A program made the translations under genes and the position numbers. Shown piece by piece: positions 22,755-24,956 of a DNA stretch of 64,000 bases. The notes under the pieces were generated by a model. It worked only from the letters and a program-made list of their open reading frames with translations, did not search any database and had not been told where the DNA came from. Each line of letters opens with the position of its first letter. Position 1 is the stretch's first letter. The DNA comes from an uncultured delta proteobacterium (lineage in GTDB: Bacteria > Myxococcota_A > UBA9160 > SZUA-336): assembly GCA_963704165.1 (NCBI GenBank), contig CAVPHD010000001.1, positions 637,072-701,071 of the forward strand, given 5' to 3'.

Positions 22755-23291
22755 TCAGGCGGGCGCGAGCGATACATCGACGTCGAGCCGCCCGCCGCTC
22801 TCTTCGAGCGCCTTCGCGAGCCGGGCCGGGTCGAGCGACTGCGGCACCTCCGCCAACACGTTCAAGCGATAGAGCGCGGCTCCGGAAGGAGAGGGCACGG
22901 AGCTCGACCGCAGGTCGGCGATGTTCACCTGGAAGTTGGCGAGCGTCCGACAGATCCCCGCCACGATCCCCGCGCGGTCCATGCCCTGCGCCTCGATCGC
23001 GTAGAGCCGCGTACCGGGTGCCGGAACCGGCGGACGTGGCTCGCCTTCGAGCGGTCGCACGAAGACGGTGAGCCGGTTCTCCCACTCGAGCCGCCGTCCA
23101 CCGCTCGTCAAGCGCTGCTCGAGCTCTGGCGATGGCCCCGAGCAGAGAAGGATCGCGGCGAACTCGTTGCCGAGAAGCGTCATCCGCGAGTCTTCGAGGT
23201 TCGCCTCGCAGTCGAAGACGAGCTGGGCGAGATCCGCGACGATGCCCGGCCGATCGCGCCCTACGGCCGAGACGATGAACCACTTCCGCAC
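22755..23291 (-). CDS. GcvR-like double ACT-domain protein
   Basis: GRDRPGIVA..NLEDSRM; second ACT GMDRAGIVA..NIADL. Confidence 0.85.
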   Translation of the reverse strand: MRKWFIVSAVGRDRPGIVADLAQLVFDCEANLEDSRMTLLGNEFAAILLCSGPSPELEQRLTSGGRRLEWENRLTVFVRPLEGEPRPPVPAPGTRLYAIEAQGMDRAGIVAGICRTLANFQVNIADLRSSSVPSPSGAALYRLNVLAEVPQSLDPARLAKALEESGGRLDVDVSLAPA

Positions 23292-23500
23292 GCGCGTTCT
23301 CCCGTGTTCGAGTCGAGGGCGATTGTACGTTACGGCGCGTGCGGTGACGCGCATCGTCCCCGGAAGCCGCAAAAAGGGGCCTTGTTGCGTATCGCACACA
23401 GGTCATTTGCGAGCGGGTGACCTCGGGGTCCGGCCGCGTGTCGGATCGTTCTCTCGCAGGATCCGCAGGCTCCCTCGGGAGCTGCGCGCGCGATCCGCCT

Positions 23501-23516
23501 TGGCACATCGATTGCT
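23501..23516 (+). promoter_or_regulatory. sigma54 (-24/-12) promoter
   Basis: TGGCACATCGATTGCT matches TGGCAC-N5-TTGC with exact GG/GC spacing. Confidence 0.75.
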
Positions 23517-23526
23517 CAACCAAGGG

Positions 23527-23616
23527 GTGCCCGCGGCTCGTTGCCTCGGGCATGGGAGTGCCCGGGCCGGAAACCCCTCCCCTCGCACTGTGCGAGGTTC
23601 CGGCCCGGGCTTTCTC
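23527..23616 (+). ncRNA. Candidate sigma54-dependent small RNA (about 90 nt) or structured leader
   Basis: Starts about 12 nt after the -12 GC. Hairpin TGCCCG..CGGGCA, then a 13-bp stem GCCCGGGCCGGAA/TTCCGGCCCGGGC enclosing an ACCCCTCC bulge and a CCTCGCAC/GTGCGAGG hairpin, followed by TTTCT. Confidence 0.55.
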
Positions 23617-23690
23617 ACCTCAAGAGGTCCGGGGCGCGCGAATCCACGCGCGCTCTCGACCTGCGAGCTCGAAGTGCCGAACCTGTAGGG

Positions 23691-24956
23691 GTGACGACTT
23701 CGGGTTCCGTTCCGCTCGAGGCACGCTCGGACGGCGTGCGACGGGCGATCGTCCTGTCGGGCGGTGGCGCGCGCGGCGCGTACGAAGCGGGCGTGCTGCG
23801 CTTCGTGCTCGGCGAGCTGCCGCGGCGGCTCGGCTGGATGCCGCGCTTCGACGTCTATTCGGGTACCTCCGTCGGGGCGGTGCACACCTGCCACCTCGCG
23901 GCGATGTCCGATGATCCCGAGGCGGGTGTGCGGGCGCTCGTCGAAGTCTGGCGCAAGATGTCGTTCTCGACCGTGTACCGATTCGGTGTCGGGGACGCGT
24001 GGGGTTTCTCGAAGACGTTGCTCGGGTTCGTCACGGGCCGGGCCGTCGGAGTCGGCGAGAACAGCGATCGCGTCCACGGGCTGCTCGACACGGCGCCGCT
24101 CGAGCGCCTGGTCGTCGAGGAGATTCCGTGGCGGCGGCTGCGCCAGAACCGCCGTGCGGGACGCTTCTCTGCGGTCTGCATCAGCGCGACCGAGATCGCG
24201 ACCGGGCGCACGGTCACGTTCGTCGATCACCGCGATCGCTCGGTTCCGACCTGGACGAACGACGAGATGCACGTCGCGGTGCCCGCCCGCATGGCACCCG
24301 AGCACGCGCTCGCCTCGGCGGCCATTCCGTTCCTGTTCCCCGCCGTGCGCATCGGCGAGACGTACTTCTGCGACGGCAGCCTGCGCCAGCAGACACCGCT
24401 CGCGCCCGCGCTTCGCCTCGGCTCGAATCGTGTGCTCGCCATCGGCCTGCGCCACTCGCGGACACCCGCGCTCGACGAGCGGCTGGCCGTGGAGCGCATC
24501 GAGCGCATGCACTCGGCCGGTTTCCTCTTCGGAAAGGTCCTGAACGCGCTGCTGATCGACCGACTCGAATACGACCTCGGCCAGATGCGTGTGATGAACC
24601 GAATGCTGCGCGCCGGGGTCGATCTCTGGGGCGAGGAGTATCTCGATCGGATCAACGTGCAGGTCAGAAAAGAGCGGGGCCTCGGCTTCCAGGTCGTCGA
24701 GGACTGCCTGATCCACCCCAGTGAGGACATCGGCGCGATCGCGGCGCGCCACGTCGAGCGCGTTCGCTCGAGTCCGGGTCGAAGCTGGCTCGGCTCGCTC
24801 GCCTTCAACGCGATGACGCGTGGCGCCCCGTCCGACGAGGCCGACCTGATGAGCTATCTGCTCTTCGACGGAGAATACGCAGCCGAGCTGATCGACCTCG
24901 GCTACCGCGATGCCGAAGCGATGGAAGCCGATCTGTTCCGCTTCTTCAGCTCTTGA
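23691..24956 (+). CDS. Patatin-like phospholipase
   Basis: LSGGGARGAYEAG, GTSVG, LASAAIPFLFP, DGS. Confidence 0.9.
   Translation: MTTSGSVPLEARSDGVRRAIVLSGGGARGAYEAGVLRFVLGELPRRLGWMPRFDVYSGTSVGAVHTCHLAAMSDDPEAGVRALVEVWRKMSFSTVYRFGVGDAWGFSKTLLGFVTGRAVGVGENSDRVHGLLDTAPLERLVVEEIPWRRLRQNRRAGRFSAVCISATEIATGRTVTFVDHRDRSVPTWTNDEMHVAVPARMAPEHALASAAIPFLFPAVRIGETYFCDGSLRQQTPLAPALRLGSNRVLAIGLRHSRTPALDERLAVERIERMHSAGFLFGKVLNALLIDRLEYDLGQMRVMNRMLRAGVDLWGEEYLDRINVQVRKERGLGFQVVEDCLIHPSEDIGAIAARHVERVRSSPGRSWLGSLAFNAMTRGAPSDEADLMSYLLFDGEYAAELIDLGYRDAEAMEADLFRFFSS

Follow-up and report, generated by a model that had tools for sequence, protein, structure and literature searches.

We found that a short intergenic segment in the genome of an uncultured bacterium carries a hairpin that is conserved nearly throughout its class; the hairpin is very probably transcribed as an RNA. 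The class is apparently UBA9160, for which the name Vahlivitia is proposed in a preprint (10.64898/2026.07.10.737566). The original prediction for the locus was a free-standing sRNA dependent on sigma54, and conservation, covariation, and the co-occurrence of promoter and enhancer strongly support it. Our preferred reading, to which we give a probability of about 0.6, is that the RNA is a trans-acting sRNA of 65-110 nt whose bulge pairs with G-rich ribosome binding sites (RBSs) and represses translation; in some lineages pilB may be among the genes it acts on. That the candidate RNA acts by base pairing is itself probable.

The window, i.e., the whole stretch of 64,000 nucleotides that was analyzed, comes from the source genome (G000), which has a single copy of the hairpin and belongs to family f1 of the class. 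The features at the locus are listed below. Counts of neighboring genes, here and later, rest on a simple gene caller written for this analysis.

22755-23291, minus strand: ACT-domain (GcvR-like) gene, divergent neighbor; the upstream neighbor in 17 loci
23343-23360, plus strand: upstream box 1, GTGACG-N5-CGTCCC; putative binding site for an activator, of the type seen in family f1
23366-23381, plus strand: degenerate copy (GCCGCAAAAAGGGGCC) of the class-wide enhancer palindrome GACRCAAWTTGYGTCAC; 3.7 bits, at the usual position in f1, about -135
23500-23516, plus strand: sigma54 -24/-12 promoter TTGGCAC-ATCGA-TTGCT; GG at 23502-3, GC at 23514-5; RpoN is encoded in the genome
23527-23553, plus strand: predicted 5' end (+1 = 23527) and hairpin 1; specific to f1, variable in sequence, covarying
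23554-23559, plus strand: GGGAGU linker; invariant in 22/22 family f1 sequences, predicted to pair with the tail
23560-23610, plus strand: hairpin 2, the class-wide core; a lower stem of 13 bp, then the bulge and an upper stem of 7 bp
23573-23580, plus strand: one-sided 8-nt bulge ACCCCUCC; predicted seed, complementary to GGAGGGGU
23611-23621, plus strand: pyrimidine-rich tail and predicted 3' end; begins UUUCU
23691-24956, plus strand: patatin-like phospholipase gene, neighbor; the downstream neighbor in 14/134 loci

This layout agreed with what had been described. The gap is about 400 bp, between the start of the minus-strand ACT-domain gene (about 23291) and that of the plus-strand patatin gene (about 23691), and it contains the consensus -24/-12 promoter, TTGGCAC-N5-TTGCT, at 23500-23516. 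The second hairpin has the expected unpaired segment complementary to a Shine-Dalgarno (SD) sequence, the ACCCCUCC bulge, and the TTTCT ending is present as UUUCU directly after hairpin 2. The folding check that had been proposed was also favorable. The region 23520-23625 folded at -67.6 kcal/mol (z -5.83), a stability reached by 0/200 shuffles, and the bulge was unpaired with a probability of 0.99-1.0 in the fold predicted from 23527. The promoter match in the window is not significant alone because YTGGCAC-N5-TTGCW, with at most one mismatch, matched once (0.28 expected) and was also present in 27/100 shuffles of the window. The consensus applied here agrees with the Desulfovibrio sigma54 elements tGGcacg/tTGCt (PMC4641369). 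Between 18374 and 29147 the window also encodes MutS2, a flavin oxidoreductase, D-Ala-D-Ala ligase, and an RPE65-family dioxygenase, all of them ordinary genes.

The structure of hairpin 2 is conserved by compensatory change. We aligned 58 copies picked to span families (alignment A1) and built a covariance model (R1) from them. In A1, 96.7% of cells were paired and 16 of the 22 pairs had two-sided changes, a favorable outcome of the covariation check in relatives that had been suggested. None of 500 shuffles reached these values, in a test that sequence kinship inflates; slid controls on the same alignment were 30-48% paired. All seven pairs of the upper stem covaried, and this fixes the register of the bulge. 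The CCCUCC within it was invariant in 85/85 copies that had been found by BLAST or R1 without use of the bulge pattern. Three pairs of the lower stem never varied in A1, and several others were nearly invariant. G-U pairs were frequent, which assigns the structure to the plus strand, as RNA. Hairpin 1 was also covarying (7/8 consensus pairs with two-sided changes in 22 family f1 sequences). However, the prediction of two strong hairpins was right for the window locus and its family and not for the class: the 5' arm folded at -8 kcal/mol or better in 23/23 f1 copies and in only 40/128 others.

We found that the sequence following hairpin 2 was rich in T: over 155 loci, the first 12 nt beyond the stem contained a mean of 5.8 T, versus 1.8 thirty bases further on. 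Hairpin 2 thus probably ends the transcript, doubling as its terminator, and the tail in the window fails a strict terminator scan. Taken together, the element has its own promoter and a predicted terminator, a conserved seed that is predicted to be unpaired, no dependence on neighboring genes, and no conserved open reading frame.

We searched 131 class genomes with R1, i.e., those at least 90% complete plus the source genome, and 124 of them had the hairpin, as did 111 of the 118 high-quality ones; the training sequences of A1 come from among these genomes. In family f5, 45 of 46 R1 hits were absent from the training set. The hits covered all 10 families represented and were mostly single-copy, with two hits in 6 genomes. 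A BLASTN search with a 126-nt query matched 100/225 class genomes. Outside the class, 123 genomes from sister classes in the phylum gave no full R1 match. Five of these 123 had weak hits (E 0.002-0.009), and the three that were inspected were plain terminators without bulge or promoter, so we rejected them as homologs. A pattern scan of all GTDB species gave at least 120 matches. Among the matches listed, most titles named Myxococcota or Deltaproteobacteria MAGs, isolates UBA9160 and UBA4427 among them, and a minority named Spirochaetales, Opitutales, Gammaproteobacteria, or Proteobacteria. Four loci titled Spirochaetales, Opitutales, or Gammaproteobacteria (L100, L102, L124, L152) have full copies with the promoter, and their labels or bins may be wrong. 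A hit titled Acidimicrobiaceae was set aside as a chance match. Viral contigs contained no match to the hairpin pattern and no relative of the neighboring ACT gene.

An Infernal/Rfam search, suggested along with the prediction, placed no Rfam family at the locus, and class-wide relatives were recovered with our own model R1. The Rfam 15 covariance models gave 0 matches at gathering level in the 64-kb window, and the best E-value in 23400-23720 was 0.89. Among the papers listed in searches of the openly accessible literature, none describes an sRNA from this class.

Several copies depart from the simple form. Five loci (L092, L093, and L094 of family f13; L232; L061) have tandem or partly duplicated hairpins behind one promoter, with the C-rich bulge kept each time, and one genome (G019) has two copies on different contigs. 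In family f5 (L102, L233, L235, L242, L244), the 5' arm often has CGAGGAGCGG, a copy of the 3' strand of the hairpin, which may be left over from a duplication or may form a second element. Some f1 copies (among L097, L029, L026) have a changed stem base (GTATCCGGG) or are without a nearby promoter.

The promoter is linked to the hairpin across the class. We found GGCAY-N5-TTGC 19-107 nt before the stem in 151 of the 155 loci with sufficient upstream DNA, compared with 0/5490 control windows. The distance was freely variable within that range. These data bear on whether the conserved segment might be a DNA-level element or a mere terminator, with no functional RNA product. The stem does resemble GC-rich terminators, and R1 hits such terminators weakly in other classes. 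However, neither an invariant bulge nor strand-specific G-U pairs would be expected of such an element, nor would a promoter at this range in nearly all loci or the dedicated enhancer described below, and we consider this explanation very unlikely.

A motif search upstream of 146 promoters revealed the palindrome GACRCAAWTTGYGTCAC in about 130 loci, mostly 110-155 nt upstream. We also searched 61 genomes for GACRCAAWTTGYGTCAC as a pattern with at most one mismatch. It was present in 25, each time no more than 300 nt upstream of the RNA, and there was one extra site away from it. In G030 (2.0 Mb searched), the sole strong GACRCAAWTTGYGTCAC site with a promoter was the RNA locus. This near-exclusive occurrence suggests that the RNA has a dedicated activator. 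In family f1, the window included, the palindrome is degenerate (0/19 match the pattern). A GACR-N5-YGTC box was upstream in 8/23 f1 loci (0.3 expected). This second box, with its 5-nt spacing, often precedes the palindrome in f1, and its shape is that of the box found before pilA in G000 and G012. A site resembling what we take to be the IHF consensus was 30-60 nt upstream of the promoter in 21/146 loci (1.9 expected), and helical phasing of the enhancer was weak (R 0.24 at 10.5 nt, n=123). The source genome encodes RpoN and about 14 sigma54 activators, so that a -24/-12 motif, an upstream activator site, and the proteins to use them are all present. We suppose that one enhancer-binding protein would bind the palindrome, loop to the sigma54 holoenzyme, and switch the RNA on, with IHF-like sites lying between palindrome and promoter in a subset of loci.

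The annotated neighbor families (flanks of 1.5-2 kb) included no sigma54 activator. One candidate elsewhere, which we presume to be FleQ-like, had a clear ortholog in just 3 of the 5 genomes in which it was sought. A GTGACG-N5-CGTCAC box shared in family f1 points weakly to PilR. In G000, pilA (C11:84570-84740, minus strand; L528) has a sigma54 promoter, an upstream GTGACG-N5-CGTCAC palindrome, and a second half-site, and from its sequence this palindrome is likely the PilR box in f1. The pilin promoters seen in families other than f1 were without the palindrome. Some activator genes of G000 deserve mention. Two of them, one being pilR, are each split over several frames (C11:85189-86025, C1:427174-427674), with breaks that are probably sequencing indels. 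The FleQ-like gene (C11:118283-120029) is beside a 79-aa ORF, presumably FlgM-like, and back to back with a second activator gene. At C10:111841-116604, an NtrY/NtrX-like pair precedes a RimI-like GNAT gene and then an oxidoreductase gene. This order is reminiscent of pxrK-pxrR-(pxr)-pxrA-MXAN_1080, although G000 leaves no gap there for an RNA; in G030 the regulator gene is followed by a gap of 528 bp (L379).

We found that the genes around the RNA change from lineage to lineage. It had been proposed, as an alternative to an sRNA, that the transcript is a cis-acting attenuating leader of the patatin gene. Within the window's genus, patatin does follow on the same strand; one RNA-library contig spans hairpin and patatin, and the tail is short and fails the strict terminator scan, as a leader's might. 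Across the class, however, patatin was the next gene in only 14/134 loci, and the nearest downstream gene was convergent in 62. Commoner neighbors were, on the upstream side, a gene with a homocysteine-methyltransferase domain and, on the downstream side, a GH20 gene or folC, and there was no consistent same-strand downstream gene of one function. There was also no alternative antiterminator fold, and a 6-bp match to the patatin RBS was not conserved within the genus. The leader proposal is scarcely credible on these grounds.

RNA-library contigs from relatives, from 7 distinct runs, cover the element. Two of them (X3, X5) end within 4 nt of the tail, and the others continue. All extend past the promoter, and contigs that span it may be DNA. 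Thirteen RNA runs contained 4% of the words.

The original prediction had pointed to Pxr, the sigma54-driven sRNA of myxobacteria. The likeness in promoter type held, and homology did not, so the comparison is one of analogy only. The Pxr model RF01812 gave no hit at the locus; its best score in the source genome, elsewhere, was 16.7 bits (at least 80 was required), and it had 0 hits across 151 genomes of the phylum. As a positive control, we fetched 15 loci with the probe printed in PMC5568312; 12 of the 15 were Pxr by Rfam, and these scored 87-129 bits with RF01812. On the same true Pxr loci, R1 scored at most 22 bits, like a terminator.

The two RNAs do resemble each other. Both have a sigma54 promoter with an upstream enhancer region and a length of about 100 nt (PMC5684412), both have a C-rich single-stranded stretch (by the Rfam consensus for Pxr), and both have tandem paralogs in some lineages, as in Cystobacter (PMC5568312). 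The SL3 stem of Pxr and hairpin 2 also share a GCCCGG/CCGGGC core. These likenesses would fit remote homology to Pxr, with the RNA remodeled over time and no longer located beside the genes of its regulators. Against this, besides the scores, Pxr has three stem-loops with its C-run in the apical loop of SL1, whereas the C-run here is a one-sided bulge of one hairpin; the region upstream of Pxr has a different repeat, without the GACRCAAWTTGYGTCAC palindrome as judged by eye. Pxr adjoins pxrK/pxrR and is confined to Cystobacterineae. In contrast, the RNA here has changing neighbors in another class, with no pxrK/pxrR upstream and no enhancer-binding protein gene among the annotated neighbor families (flanks of 1.5-2 kb). 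We regard common descent with Pxr as highly improbable.

Sigma54 activators that have a noncoding RNA as their principal or sole target are familiar from Proteobacteria, in LuxO-Qrr, CbrB-CrcZ, and GlrR-GlmY. Dedicated activators are also described for Pxr, with PxrR (PMC5684412), and for Desulfovibrio ncRNAs, with DVU0679/Dv_sRNA2, DVU0653, and DVU2359 (PMC3333781, PMC4641369). In these accounts the ncRNAs of DVU0679 and DVU0653 lie downstream of the regulator gene, whereas no regulator is adjacent here; the Desulfovibrio ncRNAs were compared by sequence through Rfam and the phylum-wide R1 search only. The 6C sRNA of Actinobacteria is a parallel in its pairing region: it is kept across a high-GC group, and its C-rich unpaired seeds pair with G-rich mRNA without Hfq or other chaperones (PMC6486639). 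The seeds of 6C differ in being the apical loops of two hairpins, and the RNA here has no Rfam match. We know of no sigma54 control of 6C. Cuckoo/CcsR RNAs (CCUCCUCCC) and Xanthomonas sX13 have anti-SD-like C-rich motifs in repeated hairpin modules. Theirs are terminal-loop motifs, in several modules, in Proteobacteria, whereas the RNA described here has a single one-sided bulge in its terminal hairpin. An alignment of the sX13 Rfam model over the C-run was at chance level (E 4.6, 12.6 bits versus a cut-off of 50). The RNA would work like Pxr, 6C, and the cuckoo RNAs, yet it belongs to none of them. What is new is that it spans a whole class, has an enhancer of its own, and presents its predicted seed as a one-sided bulge in the terminal hairpin.

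In G000 the 16S rRNA has the usual 3' end, GAUCACCUCCUUU, and GGAGG shows an eightfold enrichment ahead of start codons, and therefore the bulge can cover an SD sequence. Hfq (PF17209) was matched in 0/41 genomes, with the control positive in 5/14, and neither CsrA nor ProQ was matched in G000 (84% complete), which encodes two KH proteins of the KhpA/B type. In the trans-acting sRNA that we favor, hairpin 2 would be both terminator and a scaffold that keeps the 8-nt seed open, pairing this rich in G-C would require no Hfq, with possible help from KhpA/KhpB, and pairing across GGAGGGG(U) would exclude the 30S subunit.

GGAGGGG was present at SD distance in 26 genes of G000, three of which were traced (pilB, rplO, amtB). 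Comparison of G000 with 2.0 of the 4.5 Mb of G030 (44%) yielded 769 ortholog pairs, none with GGAGGG at both SDs (0.63 expected), and no conserved complementary site; pilB is outside the searched 44%. The motif was kept in 2/30 rplO orthologs and in 1/21 amtB orthologs, the latter with badly placed starts, and both were dropped as targets. A shared GGAGGGGTAGGGGAACATG in four genomes was likewise dropped. It opens just a 4-codon frame within a conserved coding stretch, which we take to be the antisense strand of leucyl-tRNA synthetase.

We found a partial signal at pilB. This pilus motor gene (TIGR02538 above cut-off) is the first of a pilB-pilT-pilC-pilS-pilR-pilA cluster, as read from the G000 sequence. 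GGAGGGG preceded the start in 14/30 orthologs, and the full GGAGGGGT in 13/30; GGAGGGGT was found in 0 cases in 7 control ortholog sets (rplO, amtB, and five neighboring genes). Outside the genus, seed pairing was in the top 5% in 15/28 orthologs, and anti-SD pairing in 3/28. Class-wide, by hand count among the matches listed, 42 of 122 pilB starts had GGAGGGG (150 listed minus 28 other genes, with 26 further rows outside the count). Among the matches listed, these were in families f1 (10/18), f5 (29/50, 24 of the 29 in one genus), and f3 (3/23), with 0/14 in f4, 0/10 in f6, 0/3 in f2, and 0/4 in four single genomes. In other classes, which are without the RNA, 0 of the 30 best pilB orthologs (80 genomes) had GGAGGGG at the RBS. 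The start codon was ATG in all 30 of these, and TTG or GTG almost throughout this class (L252); such a start may by itself select a G-rich RBS. Moreover, there were 26 candidates, among which pilB was singled out only afterward, and orthologs from kin are not independent. pilB is a lead and not a result because the match is patchy compared with a universal RNA, the choice was post hoc, the start is TTG/GTG, and no site was shared in 769 pairs. Judged from such sequence matches, pilB as a true target is a tentative proposal that we hold at well under even odds.

The target data leave a competing role to be weighed, in which the bulged hairpin would be a decoy, or sponge, that titrates an RNA-binding protein or nuclease adaptor, and the SD complementarity would be incidental or a mimic of the 16S 3' end. 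Sigma54-driven CrcZ and GlmY act as protein decoys, and a dedicated enhancer, as found here, is typical of sponge RNAs. The paired regions of hairpin 2 are conserved in sequence, and the three invariant lower-stem pairs fit recognition by a protein; the bulge is invariant while no universal mRNA partner was found, and KH-domain proteins are present. We keep a decoy in play because those three pairs never vary and tandem hairpins occur in some genomes. However, there is usually one hairpin per genome, whereas sponges tend toward many sites. The folds have no GGA loops and no CsrA was matched in G000, unlike a Csr/Rsm sponge, and no Hfq was detected. The enrichment at the pilB RBS fits pairing. 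A decoy function is on balance unlikely, though with a real share of the probability, and repression by base pairing is the reading with which we continue.

A more specific proposal joins these parts into a module as old as the class, in which one sigma54 activator, at its sole strong site, would switch on one sRNA whose anti-SD bulge, set in the terminator, shuts the pilB RBS and with it type IV pilus assembly. We consider this speculative and doubtful in its full form. If true, the module would be to this class what Pxr is to its own hosts, a lifestyle switch.

Our results overturn no principle, as sigma54-driven C-rich sRNAs were already known. Few bacterial sRNAs are conserved class-wide, whereas 94% of the high-quality genomes have this one, in a class that is uncultured and comes from soil, sediment, and marine datasets. 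The RNA can serve as a class-diagnostic marker. It is also a small and testable example of regulation independent of Hfq, in which the seed is displayed unusually, in a bulge of the terminal hairpin. The defined activator site is a handle for finding the regulator, and type IV pili are a candidate link to physiology. The conservation of promoter, enhancer, and seed together points to a core regulatory switch of these bacteria.
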